A stretch of 14,801 nucleotides of DNA from a virus, in UHGV virus genome UHGV-0275206; one strand, 5' to 3'. The position numbers were made by a program, and so were the translations under genes. A model generated the notes under the pieces. It was not told where the DNA came from. It ran no database searches and saw only the letters and a program-made list of their open reading frames with translations. Shown piece by piece: positions 421 through 14,801 of this stretch (position 1 is the first letter of the stretch; every line of letters begins with the position of its first letter).

Positions 421-577
421 TAATTATCATCTGCATGTCACAACGTGCATCTACGCCATCAAACCACGTCAAATAATCAATTATGACGCAGGTATCATAT
501 TAATTGATCTGCATCAACTTAACGTAAAAACAACTTCAGACAATACAAATCAGCGACACTAAATACGGGACAACCTC

Positions 578-811
578 ATGTCAACGAAGAACAGAACCCG
601 CAGAACAACAATCCGCAACATCCGCTTTCCTAACCAAATGATTGAACAAATTAACATCGCTCTTGATCAAAAAGGGTCCGGGAATTTCTCAGCCTGGGTC
701 ATTGAAGCCTGCCGCCGGAGACTGTGCTCAGAAAAAAGAGTTTCTCCTGAAGCAAACAAAGAAAAGAGTGACATTACTGAATTGCTCAGAAAACAGATCA
801 GACCAGATTGA
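578..811 (+). CDS. Small ribbon-helix-helix-like DNA-binding protein (77 aa), first gene of an AT-rich plus-strand moron
   Basis: ORF MSTKNRTRRTTIRNIRFPNQMIEQINIALDQKGSGNFSAWVIEACRRRL...; the beta-strand then two-helix pattern resembles CopG/Arc RHH regulators (pattern judgement, not searched). AT-rich upstream region with repeated ATCTGCAT motifs. Orientation is opposite to the late genes. Confidence 0.55.
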   Translation: MSTKNRTRRTTIRNIRFPNQMIEQINIALDQKGSGNFSAWVIEACRRRLCSEKRVSPEANKEKSDITELLRKQIRPD

Positions 812-867
812 AGCAATTTAGATAATCGTGCAGACTACGCCCCTCATATCACATGGAAGGTACTACA

Positions 868-1278
868 ATGGCTCAGGTTGCCATTTTTAAACAAATATTC
901 GATAAAGTGCGAAATAATTTAAACTATCACTGGTTTTATTCTGAACTAAAACGTCACAATGTCTCACATTACATTTACTATTTAGCTACAGAGAATATTC
1001 ATCTTGTTCTTGAAAACGATAATACGGTTTTAATAAAAGGACAGGGTAAGGTTGTAAATGTAAGATTTTCAAAAAATAAATGCCTTATAGAAGCCACCTT
1101 AAAAGGATTCAAATCAGGAGAGTTATCATTTTACGAATACAGGAAAAATCTTGCTACAGCAGGGGTTTTCAGATGGATTACAAATATCCACGAAAACAAA
1201 AGGTATTACTATACCTTTGATAATTCATTACTCTTTACTGAGAACATTCAGAACACTACACAAATATTTCCGCACTAA
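868..1278 (+). CDS. Hypothetical protein (136 aa from the second ATG), AT-rich, partner of the RHH gene
   Basis: ORF 853..1278; ATG at 868 is preceded by GGAAGG with 7-nt spacing. Low GC by eye (about one third). Tyr/Asn/Lys-rich and no motif I recognise. Sits at the Rz-to-cos position where lambda carries bor and related prophages carry morons. Confidence 0.55.
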
Positions 1279-1534
1279 ATCATAACGTCCGGTTTCTTCC
1301 GTGCCAGAACCGGACTCGCTGGCATGATGAAATATGTGTACCCGGTAACCCCGGTGTGCATCGTTTTTGATTATTCCCGCACACTCGCGCAGAAGGAGTT
1401 CCCCGTCGGGCTACGGTCTCTGTTAATACGGGAATACGGCGACGATACAGCGCATGATGTGTCAGGCTTGAATACCTTTATCCTTTAAAAGGGATATCAG
1501 TTAAGTTATCCCGTGTAGGGTATAAACCATTATC

Positions 1535-1562
1535 AAAGCCACTCTGTAGGAAGTGGCTTTTG
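1535..1562 (+). terminator. Hairpin with T-tract downstream of the plus-strand moron
   Basis: Perfect inverted repeat AAAGCCACT (1535..1543) and AGTGGCTTT (1552..1560) with 8-nt loop, followed by TTTTG. Confidence 0.5.
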
Positions 1563-1570
1563 TAATGGCA

Positions 1571-1599
1571 ATAAAAAGCCCCGCGAATGCGAGGCTAAA
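1571..1599 (-). terminator. Rho-independent terminator downstream of Rz/Rz1 (minus strand)
   Basis: Minus strand AGCCTCGC-ATTC-GCGGGGCT (8-bp stem with one G-U, tetraloop) followed by TTTTTAT. Confidence 0.6.
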
Positions 1600-1769
1600 T
1601 CCTGGTATTTGTAATGACTGGTTCTTATCTCAACGCAGCCCCTTACCGCGCGCAAAATGCTCAATATCAAGCATCAGCAATGAGATGTTTAATCTGGATT
1701 CACTCCAGAAGTGAGCACCACCCTGTCTACAGAGCCAGATGTGAAGGATGATGAGTAAAATTATCGCTA

Positions 1770-2237
1770 TCATCGAAGGCATTGCGTCCTGATGTATTCC
1801 TGAAGCGTTCTCAGTGCTGTTTGGTCGCGGATAATTCCGTCCCGGATACCGAGAACGTTTCGTCCAGCAACTGGAGAGAGTTCGACGGTGGCATCATTGC
1901 CCATGCCGGAGGCGCTGGAGGTTTCGGCTGAGGATGGCACAGGGCATTTTCCTTTGACGAGCACCCGACCACCATTATCAAGCTTGCGCCGAAGAGCATC
2001 ATTTTCAGCTTTCGCATCAGCTAACTCCTTCGTGTATTTATCATCGAGTGCATCAGCATCACGCTGGCGCTGCTGCATGTCAGTAATGGTGGCGTTCGCC
2101 TTCTCCAGTTCACTGGCCTTGTTATCGCGCTGTTCTTTGTAGGCGATTGCATTATCACGGTAATGATTAACAGCCCATGACAGGCAGACGATGATGCAGA
2201 TAACCAGAGCGGAGATAATCGCGGTTACCCTGCTCAT
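1770..2237 (-). CDS. Rz: Spanin inner-membrane subunit Rz (i-spanin)
   Basis: From ATG 2237: [38 protein letters not shown]...[15 protein letters not shown], matching the lambda Rz N-terminus as I recall it. ATGA overlap with the endolysin stop. Confidence 0.88.
1811..2017 (-). CDS. Rz1: Spanin outer-membrane lipoprotein Rz1 (o-spanin), embedded in the +1 frame of Rz
   Basis: [39 protein letters not shown]...: signal peptide, lipobox (VVGC) and proline-rich segment typical of Rz1; entirely inside Rz. Confidence 0.75.
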
Positions 2238-2731
2238 TGTTGCCCCCACAAACAGACCTCACGCTCAATCTCACGACGAGTCATCAGGCCTTTCCATTGC
2301 TTACCGCCAGCGTATGCCCAGCGACGTAGCTGGTCACATGCGCCCTTGATATCGCCCTGGTTTATTTTGCGAAGAAGAGTAGATGTTCTGAAATTGCCTG
2401 CGCCCACGTTATAGACGAACGAGTAAAGAGCGCCGCGCGTTGTTTCCGGTATATCGACTTTGATGTACGGGTTAATTTGTCTGGCGACCGTGGCAAGGTC
2501 TTTATTCAGGAGGGCTTTGCATTCTGCTTCGGTATACGTTTTACCTAGCATGATGTCTTTTCCGGTGTGTCCGTAACATACAGTCCATACACCAACAATA
2601 TCTTTGTATGGTATGTGGCTAACACCTTCCAGACCATCGTCACCACTTGGGCCAGTGATTAACACAGATGCTATAGCAATTGCCCCACCACCAATAGCAG
2701 CAGCAACAGCCTTGCGTAATGATGGCGACAT
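2234..2731 (-). CDS. R: SAR endolysin (T4-lysozyme-like muramidase, phage 21 R-type)
   Basis: 165 aa, [59 protein letters not shown]...: Gly/Ala-rich N-terminal signal-anchor-release domain followed by a lysozyme fold; near-identical to what I recall of phage 21 R. Overlaps the holin stop by ATGA/TAATG coupling. Confidence 0.9.
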
Positions 2732-2946
2732 TATTCACCTCTCGCAGCCTTACGCTTATCTTCTTTAATCTTGAAATAAAGGTTTGTCAGATACGTCAGC
2801 AAGCCAAATACCAGACTACCCAGCACTCCAATTGCCGCCCACTGTGAGGGCGTGACTTTATCGAGCAACTGTAAAAACCAGTACCCGACACTACCTGCTG
2901 AGGTGCCATAGGCGACACCCGTTGTTAACTTATCCATGGATTTCAT
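2731..2946 (-). CDS. S: Pinholin, class II holin of phage 21 S type, with dual-start motif (MKSMDK)
   Basis: From ATG 2946: [71 protein letters not shown] (71 aa). The MKS-M start pair gives antiholin and holin forms. SD GAGGTGG upstream. The ORF-track extension to 3009 begins with GTG and is unlikely. Confidence 0.9.
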
Positions 2947-2983
2947 AACCCCACCTCGCAGATGCGGGTGCTGTGTAATGGAA

Positions 2984-3008
2984 ATAAAAAGGCCACCTGA
3001 CGTGGCCA
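2984..3008 (-). terminator. Rho-independent terminator between the methyltransferase gene and the holin (minus strand)
   Basis: Minus strand GGCCAC-GTCAG-GTGGCC (plus 2991..3007) immediately followed by TTTTTATTT. Confidence 0.7.
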
Positions 3009-3013
3009 CCAGA

Positions 3014-4066
3014 TTATTTCCCCACCAGCTCGTTTATCTCTTTCACTGTCTGGTTAAACCGCTCTGACTCAAGCTCAACACCTAAGGCCCGACGCCCCAA
3101 CGCCATTGCTGCTTTTATTGTGGAACCGGATCCCATAAAAAAATCAGCAACCAGATCACCAGGTCGACTACTGGCATTGATTATTTGCCTGAGCATATCC
3201 GCCGGTTTCTCACACGGATGTTTACCCGGGTAGAACTGAACGGGTTTATGCATCCAGACATCGGTATAAGGCACGGAGACTGATACGGAGAAATAGCGCC
3301 GGAGAGATTTAAACTCATCCAGCAATTCAGAATATTTACGATTCAGTGAATCATAAGATGCCACCAGTTGGTGGTGTGGTTGTTCCAGTTGTTGTTCCTG
3401 AAACTTCTCTGCCGCTATACGGGAAAACAGTGCCTGTAACTTCCGATAGTCAGCCTCATTCGGCAACTGCCACTGACTGGCACCAAACCAGTGGGAAACC
3501 ATATTTTTCTTACCTGTGGCTTCGGCAATTTGTTTTGCCGTTATACCCAGTTCGGCACGAGCATCCCTGAAATACGATATCAGCGGTGCCATTATGTGCT
3601 GTTTGAGTTCCCTTTCTTTTGCCGCATAGCCGTCACTTTTGCCGCGATATGGCCCCTGGTAATGTTCAGCAAACAGAACGCGCTCTGTGGCAGGAAAATA
3701 TGCGCGCAGACTTTCTTTATTACACCCATTCCAACGTCCGGACGGCTTCGCCCAGATGATATGGTTAAGCACGTTGAAACGTTCACGCATCATGATCTCA
3801 ATATCAGATGCCAGGCGATGCCCACAGAACAGGTAAAGGCTTCCGGCAGGTTTCAACACCCGCCAGAACTGGGCCAGACAGTGGTCCAGCCACTTAAGGT
3901 AATCTTCGTCCCCTTTCCACTGATTGTCCCAGCCGTTGGGTTTCACCTTGAAGTAAGGCGGATCGGTAACAATCAGGTCAATGGAATCATCAGGCAGGGA
4001 CTGAATAAAATGCAGGCAATCAGCGTTGATTAAATCAACACTGTTTATTTTTACAGTATTTTTCAT
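3014..4066 (-). CDS. DNA methyltransferase, beta-class (motif IV DPPY before motif I FxGxG); likely N6-adenine-specific orphan MTase
   Basis: 350 aa; [10 protein letters not shown] near the N-terminus and DFFMGSGST near the C-terminus. No adjacent restriction endonuclease gene. No SD at the start. Confidence 0.85.
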
Positions 4067-4216
4067 GGATCAGTAAGCGTAACTCTGGTAGGCTCACTCT
4101 GCTTTTGCGCTAAAGCAGTGGGCCGTGGTTCGCTTGTGACCAGTAGGCATGAGCGAATGGCTGGCAGGTGCTACCAACACCCACCAGCCGCCCATTTTCA
4201 CAGCAGGAAACCGCCA

Positions 4217-4420
4217 TTACTGGCAGCGTCTGAATTTATTCCCGTACCCGCCGTTATCCTTCGCCAGACCCGCCAGAACTAACTGAGTCAGTATTAACTG
4301 GCACCGGGCTTCGCTTACTCCGGTAGTTCTCGTCATCATGCGTGGCGTTACCCACTTGTCAGCAGGTAAGAAATGAAGGACTGCGGCGGCGGTTTCTGTC
4401 ATATCTTGCTGTTTTAGCAT
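4217..4420 (-). CDS. Small hypothetical protein (about 67 aa), possible winged-helix-like
   Basis: ORF 4217..4444. The internal ATG at 4420 has a good SD (AGAAGGGA, 7-nt spacing), whereas the first ATG has none. No recognised family. Confidence 0.4.
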   Translation of the reverse strand: MLKQQDMTETAAAVLHFLPADKWVTPRMMTRTTGVSEARCQLILTQLVLAGLAKDNGGYGNKFRRCQ

Positions 4421-4542
4421 GTCTTTTTCCCTTCTGGTTAACATGACATACCAATAACTCTTGTCTAAAATGCCAGCAAGATAAAAAGTCAGTATTCACG
4501 ACAACCAGCGTGTTTACTGTACTGCACCAGGTTTACAGGTAC

Positions 4543-4566
4543 AAAAAAACCGCTCAGCGGCGGGTT
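4543..4566 (-). terminator. Candidate tR'-like intrinsic terminator of a short late-promoter transcript
   Basis: Minus strand CCGC-TGA-GCGG short stem (extendable by a G-U) followed by TTTTTTT (plus A-run 4543..4549). Weak stem, strong T-tract. Confidence 0.4.
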
Positions 4567-4639
4567 TAAGTTGTGTGGCGAAGTAACCACTCTTAACATG
4601 CTAAATGAAAAAATGCGGACCGCGTTAGTGATTTTTCAT

Positions 4640-4695
4640 CTCTTTCACGTTAATTTAAGTCTACAGGATAGAATTAAAAATAAACTGAGGCAAAA
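4640..4695. promoter_or_regulatory. AT-rich divergent promoter region: candidate late promoter PR' (minus) and promoter for the plus-strand cargo operon
   Basis: Minus strand: -35 TTGCCT (plus 4688..4693), 17-bp spacer, -10 TATCCT (plus 4665..4670), then a -10-like TTAAAT element in the initially transcribed region, as in lambdoid PR' sigma-dependent pause sites. Plus strand: -10 TAGAAT (4669..4674) with a weak -35, then SD GAGG (4687..4690). Confidence 0.35.
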
Positions 4696-5559
4696 TTGGA
4701 TAGTTCTACCACTTTCAAAGTCTTCTATGATGCCGAAGATGAAGAATTAGCACAGCATAAGATTGATGCAAAAACACTAAGTTTATCAATAGGGTCTATG
4801 GCTGACCTTATTGCAAAGGCGGATCGAAATCTTAATGATGGGCAGGAAACAGTCAAATTGATGGTTACCGCTCCTGCTGCACCTGGATCAATCGGTGTTA
4901 TTTATTCAATGCAAGAGTTAGTTCCTCATGCTGTCGATGTCGCCAAAGCAATTGGACTCACTGTTGCTGGTGGTGCATTAGCTGGTGGCTCAGCTCTTGC
5001 ATTGATTCGACAATTGGGGAGTAGAAAGGTTATTTCTGTTACTCGAAAGGTCGACACACAAGAAGCAGTATTAGAACTTGATGGAGAAGAAATTATTTGT
5101 CATGAGGCTGTTGCAAAGTTAGTGACTGATCCCGAAATACGACAAGCCTTAGTTAACGTAGTTAGAGCACCACTAGATGGTAAAGAGCGCCCGATCTTCA
5201 AAATTACTGATGATAATGGAGAAGAGATTCTCAAGCTTGAAGGAGAAGAAACTGAAGAAATCAAACCACTACCACGTGGTACTTTACTAGAAAAAGAAGT
5301 TTCTATTGATGAGGTTAACGTCAGATTCATTCAAGTAAACTTTGAAGGGAATAAGGGATGGCGAATTGATTATCTTGGTGAAGAACATTCAGTAAGCCTA
5401 GATGACAATGTTTTCCTTTCGCAGGTTCAGGCTGCAACAGTACAATTTTCAAAAGAGGACCTTTATGTTGTTGATTTAGAAACAACAAAAACATTTACTG
5501 CGCGTGGCGTAACAAACCGTTATGCTATCAAAAAAGTTAAACGTAGACGACCAGCTTAA
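4696..5559 (+). CDS. Cargo gene A: acidic 287-aa protein of unknown function with one Gly-zipper hydrophobic segment
   Basis: TTG start 5 nt after SD GAGG. GC about 37-40% by eye versus about 50-55% in flanking phage genes. Segment AKAIGLTVAGGALAGGSALALIRQLG carries GxxxG motifs; basic C-terminal tail KKVKRRRPA. No catalytic motif recognised. Confidence 0.6.
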   Translation: MDSSTTFKVFYDAEDEELAQHKIDAKTLSLSIGSMADLIAKADRNLNDGQETVKLMVTAPAAPGSIGVIYSMQELVPHAVDVAKAIGLTVAGGALAGGSALALIRQLGSRKVISVTRKVDTQEAVLELDGEEIICHEAVAKLVTDPEIRQALVNVVRAPLDGKERPIFKITDDNGEEILKLEGEETEEIKPLPRGTLLEKEVSIDEVNVRFIQVNFEGNKGWRIDYLGEEHSVSLDDNVFLSQVQAATVQFSKEDLYVVDLETTKTFTARGVTNRYAIKKVKRRRPA

Positions 5560-5565
5560 ACAGGA

Positions 5566-5829
5566 ATGATGTTAACCCAGCAGATCATAGAACTCGCGAT
5601 GTGGATAGGGGTGATCATGATATCACCTCTCCTGTTTCGCTTCTCATACGCTGCATCCGCTTTACTATGGCGGAGGTTATTCCCTGTTCGTAAGTTTGAG
5701 TTTGTTTTTGTCGATGAAGTCACCAACGATAAGCGGTCAATCACTATTGTCATGCCTAAAGACAAAAGCAAAACTATCGTTCAACTGATAGAAGAAGCAA
5801 CGAATGACGGCACCAGTTCAAATGTCTGA
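5566..5829 (+). CDS. Cargo gene B: small membrane protein (87 aa, N-terminal transmembrane segment)
   Basis: Starts 7 nt after the gene A stop (AGGA ATG ATG). Hydrophobic stretch LAMWIGVIMISPLLFRFSYAASALLW, then a charged soluble tail. Confidence 0.55.
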   Translation: MMLTQQIIELAMWIGVIMISPLLFRFSYAASALLWRRLFPVRKFEFVFVDEVTNDKRSITIVMPKDKSKTIVQLIEEATNDGTSSNV

Positions 5830-6235
5830 TGAAAAAAAACCAACTAGCCCAGTCACTTCAACCCTCTCTACTGGCGGTTTTGGGATCATTTTGTCAGGTC
5901 TGGTAACATTTTGCGTACCTGATGCCAATTCAAACCTTGCGAAATTACTATATTTAATAATACCTCTTATTTCGGCAATCCTGACATATATACTTTGCTG
6001 GGTAATTGCACGTCATGGACTTGAATCACCAGAAGATGCAGCAAAAAGAAAGCAATGCCTCCGAGATCTCGAGACCATTGATAAGCAATTAGCATCGAAA
6101 TATACCACTGATGAGTTTAGGCAAAAGCTGCTACGCTCTCGAGAAGCAACTGTGGAAATAATGATCAATATAGGAAAAAATAGTACAGCAAATCCATTAC
6201 CAAAATTTGAACAAATTGAGAAAGATACTGTGTAG
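5804..6235 (+). CDS. Cargo gene C: membrane protein (143 aa, or 137 aa from ATG 5822) with two predicted TM helices and a charged C-terminal helical region
   Basis: Overlaps gene B (coupled). TM candidates GGFGIILSGLVTFCV and LAKLLYLIIPLISAILTYILCWVIA; C-terminal KRKQCLRDLETIDKQLASKYTTDEFRQKLLRSREATVEIM. Ends 18 bp from the convergent Q stop. Confidence 0.55.
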   Translation: MTAPVQMSDEKKPTSPVTSTLSTGGFGIILSGLVTFCVPDANSNLAKLLYLIIPLISAILTYILCWVIARHGLESPEDAAKRKQCLRDLETIDKQLASKYTTDEFRQKLLRSREATVEIMINIGKNSTANPLPKFEQIEKDTV

Positions 6236-6253
6236 GTATCTTTCTCATCTTAA

Positions 6254-6616
6254 TTAATCCATATCTAATGTTAGATCTAGCATTGAAAGGCAGCCATCAA
6301 TAAACCCCTCAGCCATCTGTATCTCAATGCGTATTAATTTCTCATCCTTTTTACGAGCCTTGGCGAGCTTTCTTTTAGAGATACCGAATAGGTAATGGGC
6401 AACAAGAAGCGAATGTTCGTCCGGCCTTTTTTGCTTTAGACGAGCAAGACAACCTTCAAGAATTAATGCATCACTATCTGAACAAGCCTGACGTGTTTTG
6501 CTTGTATAGGGAAGAAGCCCTTTAAACCCAGCAGCTATAGGAGAATAGTCAACTCCTGAACTATCACTCGCCGCCCATGCTCCCCAACGATCCAGAACCA
6601 TTTGAATATCACGCAT
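6254..6616 (-). CDS. Q: Late-gene antitermination protein Q (short Phage_antitermQ type, as in DLP12 QuuD / phage 82)
   Basis: From ATG 6616: MRDIQMVLDRWGAWAASDSSGVDYSPIAAGFKGLL...EGCLARLKQ...; close in pattern to the roughly 125-aa QuuD-type Q as I recall it. SD GGAG upstream. The track start at 6631 is a TTG. Confidence 0.8.
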   Translation of the reverse strand: MRDIQMVLDRWGAWAASDSSGVDYSPIAAGFKGLLPYTSKTRQACSDSDALILEGCLARLKQKRPDEHSLLVAHYLFGISKRKLAKARKKDEKLIRIEIQMAEGFIDGCLSMLDLTLDMD

Positions 6617-6633
6617 CAACTTTCTCCACAAAA

Positions 6634-7629
6634 TCAGGCCAGTACGCCAATTGCCAGCACACGATCGATAAAACGAAATATCAGCTCCAGTTGGGAGCCA
6701 TACTTCTCTTCAAATGCCACGGTATCTGCATGCAGCTCGTCGTGATGCTTTCTGCACAAAGGCAACACAAAAAGGTCATGCGCTTTTGTTCCCATTCCAC
6801 CCTGACCGTGACCTATCAGGTGGTGGGGATCATCAGCGGGCTTTCCACAACATGCACACGGCTGTGTCTTAACCCAGCGCGTGTACTTTTCATTAACCCA
6901 GCGGCGACGTTTTGGGCGTAACATAAAAGACTCCGGCGACTCCGGATCCACTTTCAGCGCCAGCACCTTTTTCGCCTTATCCTGGATGATGCTGGTGGCA
7001 GGAACCGAAGGCACAAGGTCACTTTCCCGGGTAACAGACGGCACAACAGGCTTCGGTAATCTCAGTGCCTTACGGGCTGCACTTTCCGGTAAGGCATCCG
7101 CCAGATCATTACGAATCAGCCACCAGCACAGTTCCGGCATTGTCACAACGTGACTGTCATCAAAACCGAGATCCCGACGCACAACAGACAACACCCAGCG
7201 GGCACAGTTATCCGTTGCCATTGATTCCAGCCGTTCCGTGAACTGATCGCGCAGCTGGTTATCGCAGTGCCAGCACAGACGGATTGCACCCGGAGCGTGT
7301 CGCATTGTGGTCATGTTCTCGCTGTGCCAGTCGGAATGAGGCCACTGGCAGCCTTTTTCACGAAGTAACCAGCTTTCAAGACATTCCACGCCACCAGCAC
7401 GACGGATCACTGCCTCATTGCGGAACACGGCCCGAACGGCAGGATCATCCGCCAGCGGTTGTGATGCCGCCGGAACGGCACCACTGGCGAAAGATGAATA
7501 ACGCTCCGGCTCAGGCTCCAGCAGGACACGCCCCTGCATAAACAGGGGCATCAGCTCTGAACCTGGCCTGAACAATACGATCCCCATACGCGGGGCTATT
7601 TCAGGGGTCAGTAGTGCTCTCACGGTCAC
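6634..7629 (-). CDS. DUF968 (YdfU-like) protein with C-terminal HNH-like Cys/His cluster
   Basis: 331 aa; C-terminal ...QPCACCGKPADDPHHLIGHGQGG...LPLCRKHHDELH; sits directly upstream of Q as ydfU does next to quuQ in Qin-type prophages. GTG start (alternative GTG at 7623 with SD GAGG). Confidence 0.75.
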   Translation of the reverse strand: MTVRALLTPEIAPRMGIVLFRPGSELMPLFMQGRVLLEPEPERYSSFASGAVPAASQPLADDPAVRAVFRNEAVIRRAGGVECLESWLLREKGCQWPHSDWHSENMTTMRHAPGAIRLCWHCDNQLRDQFTERLESMATDNCARWVLSVVRRDLGFDDSHVVTMPELCWWLIRNDLADALPESAARKALRLPKPVVPSVTRESDLVPSVPATSIIQDKAKKVLALKVDPESPESFMLRPKRRRWVNEKYTRWVKTQPCACCGKPADDPHHLIGHGQGGMGTKAHDLFVLPLCRKHHDELHADTVAFEEKYGSQLELIFRFIDRVLAIGVLA

Positions 7630-7630
7630 C

Positions 7631-8440
7631 TCAATGAACGGTATCGAGCAGCTTTAACAGCTCAGGGAATCGGGATTCGAAGAAATGCGGCTGCGTCTCA
7701 CGCGGATTTGCCGGACTGGTGATGTTCTTGCCGAACATGCAGCCTTTCGCCGTCAGCGACCAGAATTTTTTGATGTTGTTAATCGCGGTACGGCTGTATC
7801 GTTCGCGCTGCTCGACGATCCCCAGCTTCGCCATCTGGTGATATGCCTGATTAGCTGTCAGGCGGATACCATACTGCTTCAGCAGTGCACTCAGTGACAG
7901 CGTGGGGCGGCTTGAGCCATCAGGCGCGTCAGCAGGAGCATCAATGGCATAGCGCGGTGCCAGATTCGGTAAGCCAACAGCCTCCTGGAGTTTCTGACAG
8001 GCACCAAGCACTGAAGAGTTAGACAGGTTTAACTCCCTGCGCATAAAGTCCAGCAGAATCACTCCAGCCTGCATCTTGTCAGCAGCCTGCCCGGATAATT
8101 TTTCCGGTGCGCTGGTTACCATATCGAAAGTACGGATCACCTTCAGATGGAATGACGGGCTGATCCACATTGCATAGGCATACACCAGTTCTTTGCAGAC
8201 ATACGTCCCCTGGTTATTTCCGCCATTAATGACGCTAACTGGTTGATTTTGTTCCAGAGGCGGAATTCCACCCTCGGTGAAAAGTTGTTCAATCAATTCA
8301 CAGGTTTGCTTATTGGAGAGCCAGTATTTCGGGCGGTTTTTTTGTTCTCCCCCGGCTGCCCTGTGCAGATCGTTCAGGCTGTAACGCCCATAAGCATCAC
8401 GACGAACTTCAATACCATCAATGACCATCAGATTATTCAT
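7631..8440 (-). CDS. KilA-N domain protein (269 aa)
   Basis: From ATG 8440 (SD GAGGAGAAA): MNNLMVIDGIEVRRDAYGRYSLNDLHRAAGGEQKNRPKYWLSNKQTCELIE...YVCKELVYAYAMWISPSFHLKVIRTFD, a typical KilA-N N-terminal domain, plus a C-terminal domain of unknown function. Confidence 0.8.
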   Translation of the reverse strand: MNNLMVIDGIEVRRDAYGRYSLNDLHRAAGGEQKNRPKYWLSNKQTCELIEQLFTEGGIPPLEQNQPVSVINGGNNQGTYVCKELVYAYAMWISPSFHLKVIRTFDMVTSAPEKLSGQAADKMQAGVILLDFMRRELNLSNSSVLGACQKLQEAVGLPNLAPRYAIDAPADAPDGSSRPTLSLSALLKQYGIRLTANQAYHQMAKLGIVEQRERYSRTAINNIKKFWSLTAKGCMFGKNITSPANPRETQPHFFESRFPELLKLLDTVH

Positions 8441-8459
8441 ACTTCGTTTCTCCTCTTGA

Positions 8460-8849
8460 TCAGGCGGCTGCACCCGCCGTTTTCTCGTACTTACTGATAG
8501 TGATCTCGACCTTCCCTTCCGGGATAACCGGTCCCCACTCCACCAGCATTCTTTTCACCTGGCTGTCGTCTTCCCACACACCCGCGTGGGTCAGGGCGTC
8601 AAACAGCGCCTTGTTATAGTTGTCCAGATCGCGGATCCGGTTATCCGGAGGAAACAACACGATCTCCACTGAAGCAGGTGCCGACGTTGGTTTCGGCAGA
8701 CGACGTAACTGCTCAACTATTGCTGTGCACGCCGCACTTTGGAATTTTCGCCCCGCCGCGCTTATCAGGCTCTTACCAGCAAATGCCCCTTTGTTGGGGT
8801 GTCGCCAGTAGGTGTTCACGCTGGGTGGAAAAGGCAGAATCAGCTTCAT
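8460..8849 (-). CDS. rusA: RusA-family Holliday junction resolvase
   Basis: 129 aa; MKLILPFPPSVNTYWRH...RIRDLDNYNKALFDALTHAGVWEDDSQV, matching the RusA signature (PPSxN, DxDN, catalytic Asp cluster). Confidence 0.85.
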   Translation of the reverse strand: MKLILPFPPSVNTYWRHPNKGAFAGKSLISAAGRKFQSAACTAIVEQLRRLPKPTSAPASVEIVLFPPDNRIRDLDNYNKALFDALTHAGVWEDDSQVKRMLVEWGPVIPEGKVEITISKYEKTAGAAA

Positions 8850-9172
8850 ACTTTCAGCCCCCTCTCATGTAACCAGTGGGCTGCACGCAGCCTTGCGTTT
8901 TCCTCACCGGCAAGCAGTGAGCGGATAATCCCGACCGCCTCGCTGTCGTCGTCCTTCACCGCGGTATGAAGCGTGATCCCCCGGGCCACACCACGCTTTA
9001 TCGTGATGACGCCTTTTTTCTCCAGTGCGCGAAGATGCTCCACCGCTGCATTCACCGAACGGTATCCCAGCATGGTTGCCACCTCCTGATTGGTTGGCGG
9101 GAAGCCGCGTTCTTTCTGATAAGAAATCAGCATATCCAGCACCTGCTGCTGGCATTGAGTTAACGTCGTCAT
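8846..9172 (-). CDS. LexA-type winged-helix DNA-binding domain protein (no peptidase domain)
   Basis: 108 aa; TQCQQQVLDMLISYQKERGFPPTNQEVATMLGYRSVNAAVEHLRALEKKGVI resembles the LexA N-terminal DNA-binding domain. ATGA-coupled to the upstream and downstream genes. Confidence 0.7.
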   Translation of the reverse strand: MTTLTQCQQQVLDMLISYQKERGFPPTNQEVATMLGYRSVNAAVEHLRALEKKGVITIKRGVARGITLHTAVKDDDSEAVGIIRSLLAGEENARLRAAHWLHERGLKV

Positions 9173-9821
9173 GCCGCCATCTCCCTGACCAGTTTTTCTG
9201 CCTGCTGGCGAATCTGCGCCAGAAAGGCCTCACCACATGCCTCAAGTTCATCGCGCCCGATGTAGCTGATTGCCGGTCCCTTCCAGGTCTTGTCGAAAAC
9301 AGCAATAGCACCAGCGAAGAAAGCGCCTGTCGGCACCTGCTTCTCATCCTTCGGGATAAACCAGGCAGGCAGTTCAAAACCAATACGCCCGCGAATAAAA
9401 GCAATATGATCTACATCTTCCGGCCACCACACTTCGCTGGTGGCAGCTTTGATCAGGAAAACATAGCGCCCGCCTTTATCACGCATGGCACTGGCATGCT
9501 TCATGATGTAACGCATGCCGGTGATGTATTGCCCCCATGCTGACTGGCGCGGCTGTATGGGGGATTACCAAAGGCAGCACCTTTAAGCTCCGCAAGGCGT
9601 TCTGACCAGTCATGCGCCAGCGCGTTGTCTTCCGCCGTGTAATACGCAGCACATTTGGCGTTATCACCGTCAGTGAACAGATCCAGAACAAACGGGCCAA
9701 ACAGGGTGTTAATTCCCCAGAAAATGTTGTCCGGCGTGCGCCACTGATCGCCCACTTCCTTCAGTTCATGGGCTGGTTTGTTCCGCAGTTCCACCAGCGC
9801 CTGGCAATATTTATTACTCAT
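9169..9821 (-). pseudogene. Phage Dam-type DNA N6-adenine methyltransferase (PF05869-like) split by a -1 frameshift in a C5/G5 homopolymer
   Basis: N-terminal ORF (9501..9821) carries ...AFGNPPYSRASQHGG and stops. C-terminal ORF (9169..9516) carries ...AFIRGRIGFELP...PTGAFFAGAIAVFD. Both halves together resemble a single Dam-family protein. Adding one C to the run at 9532..9536 fuses them as ...SQHGGQYITGMRYIMKH... Confidence 0.75.
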
Positions 9822-10309
9822 TAAGCCCCCACGTAATTCCCTGAGAGATACCACTCTTCACCTGATGCAGCCCGCTTACTGCTTTTCCGTAAACACCGTT
9901 CACGACGCGCCAAAAAATTGTTTCGTTCTGGCAGGGAGTGGCTTTCACGGAATGCCGCCATCCACACCGTTGCAGCACGACGGTATAAGCCCCTGGACTC
10001 CAGTTCTTCCGCCTGGCGGGTCAGGCACAAAATCACCCGCGGGTCGTTAGTGCCGACATAGAAATTGCGCACAGGTCTGGTTTCACGAACTGGTTGTGGT
10101 TCCGGATCCTGCGCTCTCTCAGTCAGGCGCGGGAAATGTCTGTGTGTATCTCCTTCACAACGGTGAGCCACACGCCCACTCTGACGTAACTTGCTTGCTG
10201 ACTGCAGAACGCGCTGCCGTGAGTAACCTGCAAAAGCATCCGCAATGTCTCCGGAAGTACAGCCCGGATGGGCTTCAATGAATTTCTGAACGTCATTCAA
10301 AAGACTCAT
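9821..10309 (-). CDS. PerC-family transcriptional activator-like protein with an extra N-terminal domain
   Basis: C-terminal AEELESRGLYRRAATVWMAAFRESHSLPERNNFLARRERCLRKS resembles PerC-family regulators; the N-terminal roughly 60 aa (MSLLNDVQKFIEAHPGCTSGDIADAFAGYSRQRVLQSASKLRQSG) looks like a separate winged-helix-like module. Start ATG 10309 lies just after the rep stop. Confidence 0.6.
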   Translation of the reverse strand: MSLLNDVQKFIEAHPGCTSGDIADAFAGYSRQRVLQSASKLRQSGRVAHRCEGDTHRHFPRLTERAQDPEPQPVRETRPVRNFYVGTNDPRVILCLTRQAEELESRGLYRRAATVWMAAFRESHSLPERNNFLARRERCLRKSSKRAASGEEWYLSGNYVGA

Positions 10310-10311
10310 GC

Positions 10312-11253
10312 TCACCCCCTGAATCCTGCCGGGATCTGGCTGTAGTCCACATTGTCGTAACTGGCTTTGAAGTACGGGTCTTCGCGTTTTTCTGTGTACG
10401 TGCTGACGGACGGCGATAAGCGCAGGGAAAGCTCATCCCATTTTTCCCGCAGCTTCGACGGGCTGAGCACGTTACGGCACCAGAACGGATCGCGGCTGAC
10501 GCGGCTGTACATCTCGCAGATTTGTTTGTGAGTACGACCATCCTGCACACACATCAGGCGAATTTCGTTTGCCCAGGCTGTCCAGTTCGGTTCTTTGGGA
10601 CGAACCACCTCGCCGTCACATTCGGCAGCCTGCTCGTACAGGGCGATGATTTTTTTCCAGAGCCACTGTGCGCAGGTCAAATCATCCTGCGTCCCCCACT
10701 GGCGCTTTTTAGGGCTGAATACAACCGCATCAGGATGGCGAGTTAAAAAATCCTGTTCATCCGTCTGCGTGTCCGGTTGCGAAGCGTCCGGACGAGAAGG
10801 TTTTTTATCTGACGGATCATGTTTTGATTTTACTGACGGATCCCCGCCAGATTCTGACGGGTGAAAACCCGCTTTTTTGCCAGATTTCGACGCATCAAAT
10901 TTTGACGGGTCAGATTTTGATGCGTCAGATTTTGACGGGTCAGAATCTGACAGTTGAGAAAATGCCGCTGCCTGAAGCTTCGCAACGTTAAGCTGATAAA
11001 CATTCGACGCATTGCGGTTACCCTGGCGACGCGCCTTACGCGTTAACCAGCCTTCTGCTTCCAGCCGTGCGATAGCCGTTCTGACGGTACTCATCCCCGC
11101 GCCAATCTGACGGGCAATGGTTTCAATTGATGGCCAGCACACACCTTCGTCATTACTGAAATCAGCCAGGCGGGCCATAATTGCCACGCTGGATAACTTC
11201 ATGCCTGATGCAGCGCAACCATCCCATACATAGCCGGTTAATTTAGTGCTCAT
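10312..11253 (-). CDS. Phage replication initiation protein (O-like; N-terminal HTH domain) containing the origin iterons
   Basis: 313 aa; N-terminal MSTKLTGYVWDGCAASGMKLSSVAIMARLADFSNDEGVCWPSIETIARQIGAGMSTVRTAIARLEAEGWL, a pattern I associate with HTH replisome organizers. The central repetitive linker SDPSKSDASKSDPSKFDASKS is encoded by 15-bp tandem repeats. Confidence 0.75.
   Translation of the reverse strand: MSTKLTGYVWDGCAASGMKLSSVAIMARLADFSNDEGVCWPSIETIARQIGAGMSTVRTAIARLEAEGWLTRKARRQGNRNASNVYQLNVAKLQAAAFSQLSDSDPSKSDASKSDPSKFDASKSGKKAGFHPSESGGDPSVKSKHDPSDKKPSRPDASQPDTQTDEQDFLTRHPDAVVFSPKKRQWGTQDDLTCAQWLWKKIIALYEQAAECDGEVVRPKEPNWTAWANEIRLMCVQDGRTHKQICEMYSRVSRDPFWCRNVLSPSKLREKWDELSLRLSPSVSTYTEKREDPYFKASYDNVDYSQIPAGFRG
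10806..10955. repeat. Iteron-like 15-bp direct repeats (probable ori) inside the replication initiator gene
   Basis: Contiguous units at 10881..10955: cagatttcgacgcat, caaattttgacgggt, cagattttgatgcgt, cagattttgacgggt, cagaatctgacagtt; further copies at 10848..10862 (cagattctgacgggt), 10827..10841 and 10806..10820, all with a TGACGG-type core. Analogous to lambda ori within O. Confidence 0.7.
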
Positions 11254-11601
11254 GACCGACCTCTATTTCCCTGAATTTACGACGAAACTGTTCGAGCGGG
11301 CTGAAGCACTCATGCTCATAGCCTTCGCGGAGGTAGATAACCCGTTGTGTTTCCGGTTCCCAACGAATGACTCTGACGGGCACTCCGTAGTGATCTTTGA
11401 ACCAGCGGTTAACTTGTCGCAAAGGACTGTCTCCTTCTGCCGGTTGAAATCACCCACAGCCCACTCTGCAAAGCTGTGGGTTACAATTTCCCTGTCACCT
11501 GGTACATTTACTGCATAGCAATACTCCACCTTCGCTTTTCCACCCGGTACAGGAAGCGCAATCAGTTGCGAGCGACGGTAGTGTGTTGTTAAACTGTTCA
11601 T
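11243..11601 (-). pseudogene. Early-operon hypothetical gene disrupted by an apparent -1 frameshift
   Basis: The frame from ATG 11601 ([52 protein letters not shown]...) degenerates into low-complexity sequence and stops at 11263. An alternative frame opens near 11435 and reads ...[63 protein letters not shown], ending at a stop that overlaps the rep ATG (ATGAGCACTAA), the expected coupled arrangement. A 1-nt insertion near 11422..11431 would fuse the frames. Confidence 0.55.
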
Positions 11602-12155
11602 GCGTTAGTTTCTCCACAACCAGAAGCAATCGACGCCACGACGCCCGGAGCTGCACACTCGCGGGCGTCATTACTTTCTGAAATGCAAAAAATTTTGTAG
11701 ACAAGTGCTGCATGCTCCTGCAGCTTCGAAATTGAGAGATACAGCTCGTCGTTAATTGCTGTCTTCTCATGCGGTTCCACTACACCGTCTTCGATTGCTG
11801 AACGAATCTGTTTTGAATAACTGCCGATCTGTTCAATGACTTCCAGCAGACGCTGGTTAATATCGGCGTTGTCCACATCCTCGACGTCAGGAAGAGACAC
11901 AAAGACGCCATTTGCAGACTGCGCCACAGCGTCAGCAATGAAGTGAGTTCCACCAGCACGTTGCAAAATCATTGCCCATCCCAGCGGGAAAATCTGATCG
12001 CCATCGGCACGAAGGCGGTTAAATAATGCGTTCTCTGTTACATCCAGCCAGTCAGCTGCTTCAGCGTAACCCCCCGGCAACGCTGCGATAGTTTTTCTGA
12101 CAGCTTTCACGTACCACTCAGGCTGTTTTTCTACTTTCCAGTGATGCTTACCCAC
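11598..12155 (-). CDS. Early regulatory protein in the cII position (possibly Phage_CP76 / CII-like family)
   Basis: 185 aa from a GTG start preceded by a strong SD (AGGAGGT, 5-nt spacing) overlapping the cro-like gene end. Family assignment is from position and vague recollection only. Confidence 0.45.
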
Positions 12156-12408
12156 GGTTCACCTCCTGTTCCTGTGGTTTAAACCCATTCTGGTTTTGGC
12201 TAGATTGAAAACGTGCCGGATAAAGAATCTGCATTTCGCTGACTTCACCCTTAAAAAAATTGGCTAAACGTTCTGCAAGCTCGATAGATGGAATCTGCTC
12301 CAGCCTCTCAATACGACTCAACGTCGCTGGATTGACTTGAACACCCGCAGCAACATGCTGCAAAGTGAAACCATGCGCCTTACGCACATTTCGTAATGGT
12401 GATTGCAT
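12148..12408 (-). CDS. cro: Cro-like HTH (XRE-type) early regulator, divergent from the repressor gene
   Basis: 86 aa; HTH segment FTLQHVAAGVQVNPATLSRIERLEQIPSIELAERLANFF; SD GGAGGG upstream; first gene of the minus-strand early operon. Confidence 0.75.
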   Translation of the reverse strand: MQSPLRNVRKAHGFTLQHVAAGVQVNPATLSRIERLEQIPSIELAERLANFFKGEVSEMQILYPARFQSSQNQNGFKPQEQEVNRG

Positions 12409-12505
12409 ATGCCCTCCAAATATTGCGCGTTATGCATGTTATTTCACGCAATTATTTTGCGCAAGTTGATTTGCTTATCACGCAATAAAGAAATGTAATA
12501 AACGC
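12409..12505. promoter_or_regulatory. oR-like operator/promoter region between the cro-like gene and the repressor gene
   Basis: 97-bp intergenic region with dyad sites of form TTGC-N7-GCAA: ttgcttatcacgcaa (12471..12485, perfect) and ttgcgcgttatgcat (12423..12437, imperfect), plus palindromes cgcaattattttgcg (12447..12461) and TTGCGCAA. The repressor ORF starts without an SD, as with leaderless lambda cI from PRM. Confidence 0.6.
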
Positions 12506-13198
12506 ATGAACATAGGAAACCGAGTCAGACAACTTCGCCAAGCGAAGAACATGAAAATCGCCGATCTCGCTGAAGCAATAGGAGTAGATGCGGCGAACAT
12601 CTCGCGCTTAGAAACGGGTAAGCAAAAACAATTTACCGAACAAACACTGAGTAATATTGCCAAGAGCTTAGGTGTTGATATTGCTGATCTCTTTACCTCT
12701 GCCCACAAAAGTAATACTGTATATAAAAACAGTAATAATGAGGATGTTGCGCAGGTGAAGGATGTGTTCCGTATTGAAATGCTGGATATCAGTGCCAGTG
12801 CGGGAAATGGCCTTATCCAGGGCGGTGATGTCATTGATGTGATTCATGCCATCGAATACAGAACTGATAATGCTGTATCAATGTTCGGCGGACGACCAGC
12901 CAATCACATCAAAGTTATCAACGTTCGTGGGGACAGTATGTGTCCAACCATTGAGCCAGGAGATCTCATCTTCGTTGATGTCAGCATCAATCAGTTTGAT
13001 GGTGATGGTATATATGTCTTTGGTTTTGATGACAAAATATACGTTAAAAGACTTCAAATGATTCCTGACAAACTGCTGGTGATTTCTGATAACCAGATTT
13101 ACCGTGAATGGGGAATTACTAGCGAAAACGAACACCGATTCATGGTCTTTGGAAAGGTCTTAATCAGTCAGTCGCAAACCCTTAAGAGACATAATTAA
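12506..13198 (+). CDS. cI: CI-type prophage repressor: N-terminal XRE HTH plus C-terminal S24 (LexA-like) autopeptidase domain
   Basis: 230 aa; IADLAEAIGVDAANISRLETGKQ HTH; C-terminal GDSMCPTIEPGDLIFVD...YVKRL with Ser/Lys dyad; candidate Ala-Gly cleavage site in DISASAGNG. Confidence 0.88.
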   Translation: MNIGNRVRQLRQAKNMKIADLAEAIGVDAANISRLETGKQKQFTEQTLSNIAKSLGVDIADLFTSAHKSNTVYKNSNNEDVAQVKDVFRIEMLDISASAGNGLIQGGDVIDVIHAIEYRTDNAVSMFGGRPANHIKVINVRGDSMCPTIEPGDLIFVDVSINQFDGDGIYVFGFDDKIYVKRLQMIPDKLLVISDNQIYREWGITSENEHRFMVFGKVLISQSQTLKRHN

Positions 13199-13217
13199 CC
13201 TCAATATCCCATCCATC

Positions 13218-13240
13218 GGCCACCGAAAGGTGGCTTTTTA
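13218..13240 (+). terminator. Rho-independent terminator after the repressor gene
   Basis: GCCACC-GAAA-GGTGGC (13219..13234) followed by TTTTT (13235..13239). Confidence 0.8.
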
Positions 13241-13252
13241 CTACCTATAAAT

Positions 13253-13289
13253 TTGCATACCTCGCAAATATCACTTGCATATCTCGCAA
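13253..13289. promoter_or_regulatory. oL-like pair of repressor operators
   Basis: Two perfect TTGC-N7-GCAA dyads, ttgcatacctcgcaa (13253..13267) and ttgcatatctcgcaa (13275..13289), 22 bp centre to centre; same architecture as the site in the cI/cro intergenic region. Confidence 0.55.
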
Positions 13290-13452
13290 TTTAATTTTAT
13301 CTTTTGTTCCAGACCAACTACAGGATTACAACAAAATCTGGTTGCAACACGGTGCATGTGTCGTAAGCAGTCAGTAAATGTCAAAAACGAACAGGCAGGA
13401 CGCCCACGAAGTAGCCGCCTGGGGCATATGAAGTCCAGGATGATTCGTTAGC

Positions 13453-13478
13453 AACAAAAAAGCGCCCTACAGGACGCT
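13453..13478 (-). terminator. Rho-independent terminator downstream of the zinc-ribbon gene (minus strand)
   Basis: Minus strand GCGTCC-TGTA-GGGCGC (one G-U pair) followed by TTTTTTGTT. Confidence 0.6.
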
Positions 13479-13517
13479 TAGCTCTTTAGCAATCTGGATA
13501 TCCACAACAGTAGTAAT

Positions 13518-14009
13518 CTACAGATTGCCGTTAAGTTTTCTGGACAACTCCTCAATGGATGGAGGCGATACGTAATCCGGATTTTTATTCATCAGAAACT
13601 TATTTTCACAGTGGAGGCACCTGCTTTTATGAAAAAGCTCATCTTCGCTAACCGGGAATGGTTGAAGTATCGATACTATCTTTTGTCCAAAACATTTTGG
13701 GCAAAGATGCATGGTTATGCTGCCACCGTTCACGATTACCTCCTTCGAGTATACAAAAGTACCCGACTCAAGTTGGTTAAGGATATAGCCTTCCGTCTGA
13801 GCCTCAAAGTTTTCGAATTCTGCAATTTTAGCTTTGAGAGAAGCATTTATTTCTTGATAAGAGCCCACCAGTTCAACGAGAGACACGCATTCGCGCTGAA
13901 TAGACGCAAGCTTTGAGTTCAGCTCACCAATAGCCGCATTTACTTCAGCTTGAGTTTTTGCCTCGTTCATTAGTTTTGCAATCTGGGCTGTTTCACGAAT
14001 AGCCGTCAT
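13518..14009 (-). CDS. Hypothetical coiled-coil protein with C-terminal CxxC...CxxC zinc-ribbon (about 163 aa from ATG 14009)
   Basis: From ATG 14009: MTAIRETAQIAKLMNEAKTQAEVNAAIGELNSKLASIQRECVSLVELVGSYQEINASLKAKIAEFENFEAQTEGYIL...MHLCPKCFGQKIV...SRCLHCENKF. The ORF-track N-terminal extension (MWCRVPPGAWRRLH...) looks non-coding. Own terminator; orientation convergent on cI. Confidence 0.6.
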   Translation of the reverse strand: MTAIRETAQIAKLMNEAKTQAEVNAAIGELNSKLASIQRECVSLVELVGSYQEINASLKAKIAEFENFEAQTEGYILNQLESGTFVYSKEVIVNGGSITMHLCPKCFGQKIVSILQPFPVSEDELFHKSRCLHCENKFLMNKNPDYVSPPSIEELSRKLNGNL

Positions 14010-14047
14010 TGCTGCCGTTAATTCAGCGATCACATTGAATACTCTTA

Positions 14048-14093
14048 TTGTTGTTGGGGATATCCAGATTAACCGAATCCTTGTTGTTGGGGA
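14048..14093. repeat. Two perfect 13-bp direct repeats ttgttgttgggga, 33 bp apart, upstream of the zinc-ribbon gene
   Basis: Copies at 14048..14060 and 14081..14093, each (TTG)3GGGA; located 40-85 bp upstream of the ATG at 14009 on the minus strand. Confidence 0.6.
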
Positions 14094-14295
14094 ATAACCA
14101 GGTCCACCTCGCCTGATGTGGCTAAAAGCAGGCACATAACAGCTAAGTATTTTCAACCAGAGAGAATCCTTAGCGTTGTGGTGAATGCGGCTCAGCGCAC
14201 GCGGGTTAAGGTTGAGGCTGACAGTCGACCTTCTGTGGATACCCACCCGCCTGGTGTGCAACCTTCGCCAGGCACCGGGAGGCACCCGGCACCAC

Positions 14296-14366
14296 AACTT
14301 TATGCTGTGTGTAGTCCTGGCGGTACCAGTTTGTACCCTTGCTTCCGGCTGGTACCGTCCTTTTTT
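14296..14366 (+). ncRNA. DicF-like small RNA candidate ending in a strong intrinsic terminator
   Basis: CCUGGCGGUACCAGUUUGUACCC resembles the DicF core (UUUGGCGGUAUCAGUUUUACUCC) as I recall it. Hairpin GGCGGTACCAG (14319..14329) with CTGGTACCGTC (14349..14359), then TTTTTT (14361..14366). No ORF with an SD in the region; lies in the pL-side operon, as dicF does in Qin. Confidence 0.45.
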
Positions 14367-14367
14367 G

Positions 14368-14454
14368 CAAAACAGAGAAGAGCATCACCGGACGACGGGC
14401 TCATAACCCAATCCATCCGGGCGGCTGCCACCGCAGGTGTTCTTCTCTGTTTTG
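14368..14454. repeat. Long-range perfect 14-bp inverted repeat enclosing 59 nt (extended RNA stem-loop candidate)
   Basis: caaaacagagaaga (14368..14381) and its reverse complement tcttctctgttttg (14441..14454), between the DicF-like terminator and the next gene start. Confidence 0.6.
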
Positions 14455-14503
14455 TGGAGAAACCAACCGACCTTGCAGGGTCGATATGATGAGGAGCAGC
14501 AAA

Positions 14504-14731
14504 ATGGCTAGCGAACGCAGTACTGATGTGCAGGCATTTATCGGGGAGCTGGACGGCGGCGTATTTGAAACCAAAATCGGCGCAGTTCTCAGTGAGGTCG
14601 CTTCCGGTGTGATGAACACGAAAACCAAAGGGAAGGTCTCACTCAATCTGGAAATCGAACCGTTTGATGAGAACCGTGTGAAAATCAAACACAAACTCTC
14701 ATTGAACCGCCCCGGAAATCCTGGAGACTAA
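14504..14731 (+). CDS. Small early (pL-side) gene truncated by IS insertion; native part about 66 codons, last 9 codons come from the IS end
   Basis: ATG 14504 preceded by SD GAGGAG (7-nt spacing). MASERSTDVQAFIGELDGGVFETKIGAVLSEVASGVMNTKTKGKVSLNLEIEPFDENRVKIKHKLS, then ...LNRPGNPGD* encoded by the IS terminal repeat from 14703. Confidence 0.5.
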   Translation: MASERSTDVQAFIGELDGGVFETKIGAVLSEVASGVMNTKTKGKVSLNLEIEPFDENRVKIKHKLSLNRPGNPGD

Positions 14732-14801
14732 ACTCCCTGAGAAAGAGGTAAACAGGATGACTAAAAATACTCGTTTTTCCCCCGAAGTCCGTCAGCGGGC
14801 G
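14703..14801 (+). mobile_element. Left end of an IS3-family insertion sequence (IS629/IS1203-like), continuing beyond the window
   Basis: Terminal inverted-repeat-like sequence TGAACCGCCCCGGAAATCCTGGAGACTAAACT from 14703, then SD GAGG and orfA start. Confidence 0.75.
14757..14801 (+). CDS. IS3-family transposase OrfA, N-terminal fragment
   Basis: ATG 14757 translating MTKNTRFSPEVRQRA, the typical start of IS629/IS3-group OrfA (HTH part of the transposase). Confidence 0.75.
   Translation, partial: MTKNTRFSPEVRQRA

Follow-up and report, generated by a model that had tools for sequence, protein, structure and literature searches.

The segment at positions 10771 to 10950 of the 14,801-nucleotide stretch of viral DNA analyzed here (referred to as the window) very probably serves, as far as its sequence and that of its relatives can tell, as the origin of replication in an SfII-like lambdoid prophage, lying in the linker-coding part of the prophage's own O-like initiator gene, rep. 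A first-pass annotation of the same DNA had proposed iterons embedded in the initiator gene, in parallel to the lambda origin inside O, and this proposal is supported by homology, by the position of the repeats in the linker, by frozen codons, and by inheritance of the repeats as a cassette. The principle is not new, as lambdoid phages are known from textbooks to carry origins within their initiator genes; here it is found in a very common, poorly annotated family. No paper describing this origin was found in the literature searched, which was without the 2006 review of Weigel and Seitz, and searches with the motif strings gave unrelated matches only. In the SfIV genome paper, the replication module is reported to be common to SfIV, SfII, and SfV, and no origin is mentioned (PMC3851460).

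The window belongs to a lambdoid prophage (Table 1). The match to SfII covers positions 6570 to 13449 at 97% identity and reaches 98.7% over 10000 to 12500. Similarity to SfII is absent at positions 1 to 6570 and 13450 to 14801, except at 14104 to 14469, and the prophage is considered a mosaic because the match ends at these borders. Rep itself is 100% identical to the SfII protein annotated as "O protein family protein," and SfII and SfIV, both isolated phages, carry the replication module with a Rep that is 99 to 100% identical. In a promoter scan, the early operon showed no convincing sigma-70 site; activation of the origin by transcription is therefore suggested by analogy only. Further downstream, the Dam-type methylase gene (PF05869; 9169-9854, minus strand) is broken into two open reading frames by a 1-nt deletion near position 9513 (CATG-GGGG here, CATGAGGGG in SfII) and is therefore a pseudogene in this prophage.

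Table 1. Genes, Rep domains, and parts of the putative origin, in window coordinates ("sense" refers to the strand of rep; parts of the element are listed from promoter-proximal to promoter-distal)
Feature	Position	Strand	Description
cI	12506-13198	+	
cro	12148-12408	-	Early operon
CII/CP76-like gene	11598-12155	-	Early operon
112-aa ORF	11263-11601	-	Early operon, upstream of rep
rep, O-like replication initiator, 313 aa	10312-11253	-	ORF; PHROG 391 "replication initiation O-like"; SfII match
Rep N-terminal winged-helix DNA-binding domain, aa 1-102	10948-11253	-	Pfam HTH_36
Rep linker, predicted disordered, aa 103-161	10771-10947	-	pLDDT <50
Rep C-terminal helical domain, aa 162-313	10315-10770	-	Homologous to lambda O C-terminal domain
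Five tandem iteron units, 11-mers TCA(A/G)A(A/T)TCTGA (sense)	10880-10950		15-bp period, variable 4-nt spacers
Positions of the 11-mers	10940-10950, 10925-10935, 10910-10920, 10895-10905, 10880-10890		
Spacer with A6 tract and T4 tract, sense CAAAAAAGCGGGTTTTCA	10862-10879		Read from sequence
19-bp near-perfect palindrome CCCGyCAGA-A-TCTGGCGGG	10843-10861		Most conserved iteron copy; same core as 11-mers
Two GATCCGTCAG copies (sense), 24 bp apart	10833-10842, 10809-10818		Each with Dam GATC site
A+T-rich stretch, 71% A+T, candidate unwinding element	10800-10834		Least stable 35-mer within rep
GC-rich distal element	10771-10799		Palindrome GTCCGGAC at 10786-10793; 15-bp-spaced direct repeat CTTC-N4-CCGGAC (sense)
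PerC-like gene, 164-aa product	9821-10315	-	Directly downstream of rep
Phage Dam methylase, then LexA-like, RusA, KilA-N, DUF968/HNH, and Q genes		-	Early operon, after PerC-like gene
Second DNA methylase, N6_N4_Mtase	3014-4066	-	Adjoins lysis genes

Rep is an O-like initiator in three parts, namely, a winged-helix N-domain, a linker for which disorder is predicted, and a lambda-O-type C-domain. The whole protein falls within PHROG 391 (E value, 1.2e-135), and comparison with lambda O by BLASTP gave an E value of 7e-26. The C-terminal part, for which the first-pass annotation had named a domain search as a check, is homologous to the C-terminal domain of lambda O, with 39% identity over aa 166 to 277 (E value, 1e-17; tblastn against phage genomes); the same residues also match phi80 gene 15 and 933W O. 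The structure was predicted with AlphaFold2 from a 36-sequence alignment, which yielded a winged helix, a low-confidence linker, and a helical C-domain with the boundaries given in Table 1, the block-mean pLDDT of the C-domain being mostly about 90 across aa 189 to 278. A fold search with the full-length model was dominated by generic winged helix-turn-helix proteins. In Pfam, the sole match of Rep is the N-terminal HTH_36 winged helix; no match was obtained to Rep_3 or to Phage_rep_O (PF04492), the family that lambda O itself matches with an E value of 6e-36. Rep is thus not a full member of the lambda O family, in that its N-domain belongs to another Pfam family, its palindromes recur with a 15-bp period, and no P gene accompanies it. 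Regarding nomenclature, PGAP calls the protein "helix-turn-helix domain-containing protein," and other pipelines use the misleading "primosomal protein I" (DnaT), an annotation supported by neither Pfam nor NCBIfam.

The repeats themselves had been described beforehand as at least five contiguous 15-bp units inside the rep ORF, with more degenerate copies upstream, translated as an SDPSK/SDASK pentapeptide linker. All of this was confirmed: the units occupy positions 10880 to 10950, related copies extend down to about 10809, and the translated ORF includes SDSDPSKSDASKSDPSKFDASKSGKK, each unit encoding an SDPSK-like pentapeptide. Tandem Repeats Finder reported, at positions 10881 to 10944, a period of 15 (4.3 copies, 81% matches) as well as a period of 30 (2.1 copies, 88%), and a repeat search returned copies at 15-bp steps together with related copies near 10807 to 10862. 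The sequence TGACGG, which had been taken as the repeat core, did not survive this analysis. It occurs five times within 10806 to 10955 and is exact in only two of the five contiguous units; moreover, it straddles the variable 4-nt spacer, to which its CCG/GCA part belongs in 265 units collected from relatives. Judged from these units, the conserved core is instead the palindrome CAGAWTCTG within the 11-mer TCA(A/G)A(A/T)TCTGA.

The regularity of the array was gauged against two kinds of randomized sequence. With one mismatch or fewer allowed, TCAGAWTCTGA occurs four times in the 14.8-kb window, always within 10847 to 10950, where 0.26 occurrences are expected, and none of 200 shuffles reached four copies. 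For the second comparison, the amino acids were kept and synonymous codons were redrawn 20,000 times from the codon usage of the window. None of these resamplings reproduced the five palindromic 11-mers (mean, 0.18; maximum, 3), and the mean identity between units, 0.75 as observed, was 0.51 after resampling, with a maximum of 0.73. The repeat is therefore real, nonrandom, and more regular than the encoded peptide needs.

The array occupies nt 304 to 407 of rep, between the regions encoding the two domains, and the four iterons of lambda are found at the same relative place, nt 349 to 435 of O. Across these 265 units, variation falls in the 4-nt spacer while the 11-mer is conserved, and the spacing between units equals 15 bp in 192 of 198 cases. 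Linker length among database homologues is polymorphic in steps of 5 aa, which corresponds to unit copy number. On the promoter-distal side of the array, the A and T runs of the spacer are partly conserved in 66 relatives, and the adjoining 19-bp palindrome, better conserved than any other part of the element, shows conservation of at least 90% in 66 unique relatives; in more distant relatives, a perfect 17-bp palindrome, CCTCCAGAATCTGGAGG, takes its place. Both GATCCGTCAG copies, set in the least stable stretch of rep, are conserved in the consensus, and the Asp codon within them is GAT in 77/77 and 69/69 homologues. The CCGTCAG starts of the promoter-distal copies are 21 and 24 bp apart, compared with 20, 24, and 23 bp for the iterons of lambda. 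The candidate unwinding element, with a nearest-neighbor free energy of -40.3 kcal/mol (window mean, -47.4; standard deviation, 3.9), is in the right place for such a tract, but its A+T richness is modest, and it ranks no higher than among the top 4% of the window. The GC-rich end also contains frozen codons (Cys TGT in 54/54 and Asp GAC in 64/64 homologues).

Evidence for selection on the DNA itself was obtained from synonymous codon choice. Four phages sharing the N-domain (Klebsiella phage 1 LV-2017, Citrobacter phiNP, Yersinia YeP3, and phiP27) were compared with the window; at conserved degenerate residues, the fraction of identical codons ranged from 0.77 to 0.93 in the linker versus 0.38 to 0.48 in the N-domain (Fisher P values from 3e-4 to 1e-7). 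A scan covering one genome per species yielded 80 prophage loci across the Enterobacterales, of which 77 were usable. In this set, codon entropy is approximately zero at most conserved residues of aa 104 to 161, whereas it amounts to 1 to 2.4 bits at most positions of aa 1 to 97 and again after aa 163. Frozen linker codons include Ser TCA (72/72), Ser TCT (60/60), Val GTA (75/75), and Asp GAT (77/77), and the consensus of 66 unique sequences is at least 90% conserved over CCAGAATCTGG.GGGGATCC.TCAGTAA. Because synonymous codons are frozen at positions 10771 to 10947 and scrambled on both sides, this segment is under selection at the DNA level. The extent originally assigned to the element, 10806 to 10955, does contain the array, but the DNA-constrained segment continues for about 35 bp, to approximately 10771. 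The frozen zone (10771 to 10944) has almost the same boundaries as the linker for which AlphaFold2 predicts disorder, which makes rep a clean case of dual coding, in which frozen codons overlap a predicted disordered linker in a gene that doubles as a DNA site. An overlapping gene was rejected as the cause of the codon freeze: in most of the 66 loci, each alternative frame is interrupted by stop codons within the zone, and the best alternative frame is open in 25 of 66.

These data also bear on the reading in which the repeats matter at the protein level only, as a low-complexity Ser/Asp/Pro/Lys linker whose length is driven by slippage and whose DNA has no function of its own. The 5-aa steps in linker length among relatives and the predicted disorder would suit such a linker. 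Nevertheless, synonymous codons of the linker are fixed in the 77 species-level homologues while the flanks are saturated, the 11-bp DNA core stays constant, in contrast to the amino acids that the spacers encode, and the palindromes are never reproduced by codon resampling; we regard a purely protein-level role as extremely improbable.

A cis-regulatory function of the conserved DNA, for instance, as a Rep operator repressing or attenuating its own operon, as an mRNA structure controlling translation, or as an antisense terminator or promoter, was weighed as well. The single strand folds much better than shuffled sequences (z = -5.6), yet the good fold results from the palindromes themselves, and long-range pairs would be lost with the changes in unit number that are seen among relatives; a search of the window for Rfam RNA families gave no match. 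A terminator-like hairpin with a T run (CGGGTGAAAACCCG followed by CTTTTTTG; 10858-10877, plus strand) does lie inside the array, antisense to rep, but among relatives only its A and T runs are conserved and the stem is not. Exact copies of TCTGACGG occur five times in the window, all on the plus strand between 10808 and 11379, and the extra copies at 11080-11087 and 11106-11113 (winged-helix part of rep) and 11372-11379 (112-aa ORF) could point to such a role. The DNA of the two extra copies within rep is, however, not conserved in more distant relatives; these copies could be auxiliary or autoregulatory sites, or they could have arisen by chance. Finally, the phage must have an origin somewhere, and the early region shows no second repeat cluster. 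Taken as the main function of the segment, cis regulation is therefore rated as unlikely.

The distribution of the repeats among relatives points to a cassette composed of the N-domain and the repeats, which is joined to four different, unrelated types of C-domain: a lambda-O-like type (15 loci, including this window), Phg_2220_C (57 loci), the phiP27 type (2 loci), and a further type (2 loci). The junction to the C-domain directly follows the conserved DNA. Genes downstream of rep differ among these relatives (PerC-like, methylases, DnaC-like, P-like, or none), and the sole constant companion of the repeats is the N-domain, as expected if the N-domain is the protein that reads them. In relatives whose N-domains are only 41 to 53% identical, perfect CCTCCAGAATCTGGAGG palindromes and the GATCC element are kept. 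Covariation between N-domain and iterons was not demonstrable across this family, since the core is identical even at 41% N-domain identity; the invariance of the core makes the comparison uninformative. One database protein (P0137, with a single member) is without the tandem-unit stretch of the linker, and thus either the tandem part may be dispensable or this copy is defective.

Given this modular architecture, it is conceivable that the segment is kept as a joint for homologous recombination between modules, or that it is recognized not by Rep but by some other protein, for example, a host factor, SeqA or Dam at the GATC sites, or the downstream regulator. The swap of C-domains directly after the conserved DNA is compatible with the former, and the invariance of both GATC sites, along with the presence of a methylase gene after rep in most relatives, is compatible with the latter. 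A neutral joint, however, would drift as a whole, and the sequence is kept down to 41% N-domain identity; as for another DNA-binding protein, the downstream genes differ among relatives, and the N-domain alone is always found with the repeats. Both variants are accordingly judged very unlikely as the primary explanation, and a role as a joint is more easily seen as a consequence of constraint on an origin than as an alternative to it. In that secondary capacity, the conserved origin DNA might serve as a recombination joint for domain shuffling.

Besides the P0137 protein and the uninformative covariation, three features weigh against an origin: the N-domain does not belong to the family of the lambda O N-domain, the 15-bp period corresponds to about 1.4 helical turns and thus departs from the spacing of about two turns seen in lambda and plasmid iterons, and the A+T-rich tract is modest (71% over 35 bp). 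An origin is still, in our assessment, what best fits the frozen, palindromic DNA at this place in an O-like gene. In the proposed mechanism, Rep would be made from the early cro/cII operon, and its winged-helix domains would bind the palindromes, probably as dimers, to build an O-some-like complex. This complex would strain and open the adjoining A+T-rich tract, after which the Rep C-domain would bring in the host DnaB helicase. The SDPSK/SDASK peptide repeat would then be a by-product of binding sites placed in frame in a tolerant disordered linker.

Helicase loading is a step at which this system differs in gene content from lambda, where the O C-terminal domain binds P rather than replacing it. 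The earlier observation that no P/DnaC-like loader gene adjoins rep can be extended to the window and to the whole SfII genome, neither of which contains a P, DnaC, or helicase gene; the remainder of SfII consists of structural genes. When lambda P was used as a tblastn query for the window and for the early region of SfII, the matches were noise only (E values of at least 6), and the 164-aa protein encoded downstream, considered as a hidden P, is PerC-like and unrelated to lambda P. Since SfII and SfIV carry the module and SfII has no loader gene, host factors must suffice; as the phage encodes neither P nor DnaC nor a helicase, loading would have to proceed by way of the DnaB-DnaC complex of the host. 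Among the 15 relatives with a lambda-O-type C-domain, a P-like gene lies beside rep in one (L078). Of the two loci noted at L078:3445-4197 and L045:3325-4062, L078 has the lambda-O-type C-domain, as expected, and L045 has the Phg_2220_C type, an unexpected pairing. In Hafnia and Erwinia phages, the O-like genes with this C-domain are followed by a replication gene, which is annotated as a P-like loader (Phage_lambda_P) in Erwinia phage 59 and is a "putative DNA replication protein" of P-like size in Hafnia phage Meifeng. The lambda-O-type C-domain thus regularly occurs without P. Modules of this kind are reportedly classed as "initiator-solo" in the Weigel and Seitz review of phage replication modules. 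It is possible, albeit rather doubtful, that a lambda-O-type C-domain without P recruits host DnaB-DnaC directly in such a loader-free lambdoid system, that Dam methylation and SeqA at the two invariant GATC sites of the candidate unwinding tract gate firing, and that the origin DNA also acts as a recombination joint for the four helicase-recruitment domains.

A methylase gene follows rep, either directly or past a PerC-like gene, in most relatives (L010 to L089 and L002 to L004), and these enzymes belong to the D12 class, the PF05869 Dam class, or ParB-like fusions. With two invariant GATC sites in the element, methylation might be linked to origin firing.

The family is widespread. The initiator is matched by 2,374 protein clusters, and of 5,426 complete genomes of E. 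coli, 1,953 (approximately 36%) carry the 185-bp element, whatever the type of rep C-domain, with up to four copies of rep and element per genome. Many database entries for Rep are "partial" fragments that end at contig ends (P0001 to P0120); multiple prophage copies probably break short-read assemblies at rep. A circular "plasmid" of E. coli CX04 (NZ_CP081716.1; 37,667 bp) is an SfII-like phage genome with this rep and origin element; it has no mobility type assigned and is presumably an excised or replicating phage assembled as a plasmid. In the phiP27 record (AJ298298, positions 3001 to 6204), the product designated L17 is a Rep of the HTH_36 type, and a DnaC-like gene and a helicase gene come next. 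This differs from the description of a "P27" O protein that is nearly identical to lambda O and has six iterons (PMC7466680), and the two are possibly not the same replicon. Serotype-converting Shigella phages of the SfII/SfIV/SfV type, and their relatives, could be annotated better with a defined element (core CAGAWTCTG, 10771 to 10950) and the correct domain assignment.

Iterons inside the initiator gene are the rule in lambdoid phages, including lambda, 933W, P22, and L (PMC7466680; PMC8022706). In lambda and the Stx phages, iterons and an A+T-rich tract lie in the middle of the initiator gene, and the number of iterons varies, adding residues to O (PMC7466680). The element described here resembles the origins of lambda and 933W (six iterons) in several respects: the initiator is built from a DNA-binding N-domain, a linker, and a C-domain, the C-domains being homologous; inverted-repeat iterons in the middle of the gene are translated as the linker; a candidate A+T-rich unwinding tract, although weaker in this phage, is on the promoter-distal side; and iteron number varies between relatives. 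As in lambda, the initiator gene follows cro and cII in the early operon. It differs from lambda in its N-domain (HTH_36 here, Phage_rep_O in lambda), in its 9- to 11-bp palindromic core with a strict 15-bp period as opposed to 19-bp sites about 20 to 24 bp apart, and in that no P gene follows rep. Phage L gene 18, whose six imprecise copies of an 11-bp sequence were identified by sequence inspection alone, and its P22 counterpart likewise have iterons inside the initiator gene that differ from phage to phage (PMC8022706). Unlike in P22 and L, where a DnaB-type helicase of the phage's own (gene 12) adjoins the initiator, neither helicase nor loader is encoded here.

Outside the lambdoid phages, iteron plasmids such as pSC101, R6K, RK2, and P1 use a winged-helix initiator that binds direct repeats beside an A+T-rich unwinding element, and they use host DnaB-DnaC without an element-encoded loader; P1 oriR has GATC sites in its unwinding region. 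The present system would share the winged-helix initiator and the use of host DnaB-DnaC with no loader of its own, and it has direct repeats adjoining an A+T-rich stretch and, as in P1 oriR, GATC sites in that stretch. In contrast to these plasmids, Rep has no Rep_3 domain, the window contains no DnaA box (TTWTNCACA), the repeats lie inside coding sequence, and their period is 15 bp as opposed to about 22 bp. The last comparison is with SPP1 G38P and the DnaD-like replisome organizers of phages of Gram-positive bacteria. Among the PHROG families, those called "DnaD-like helicase loader" and "replisome organizer" are matched by the Rep C-domain, and a fold search with this domain alone gave weak matches only, including G39P and DnaD-like domains. 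As in SPP1, in which oriL lies within gene 38, the putative origin is located inside the gene for the protein that would organize replication.
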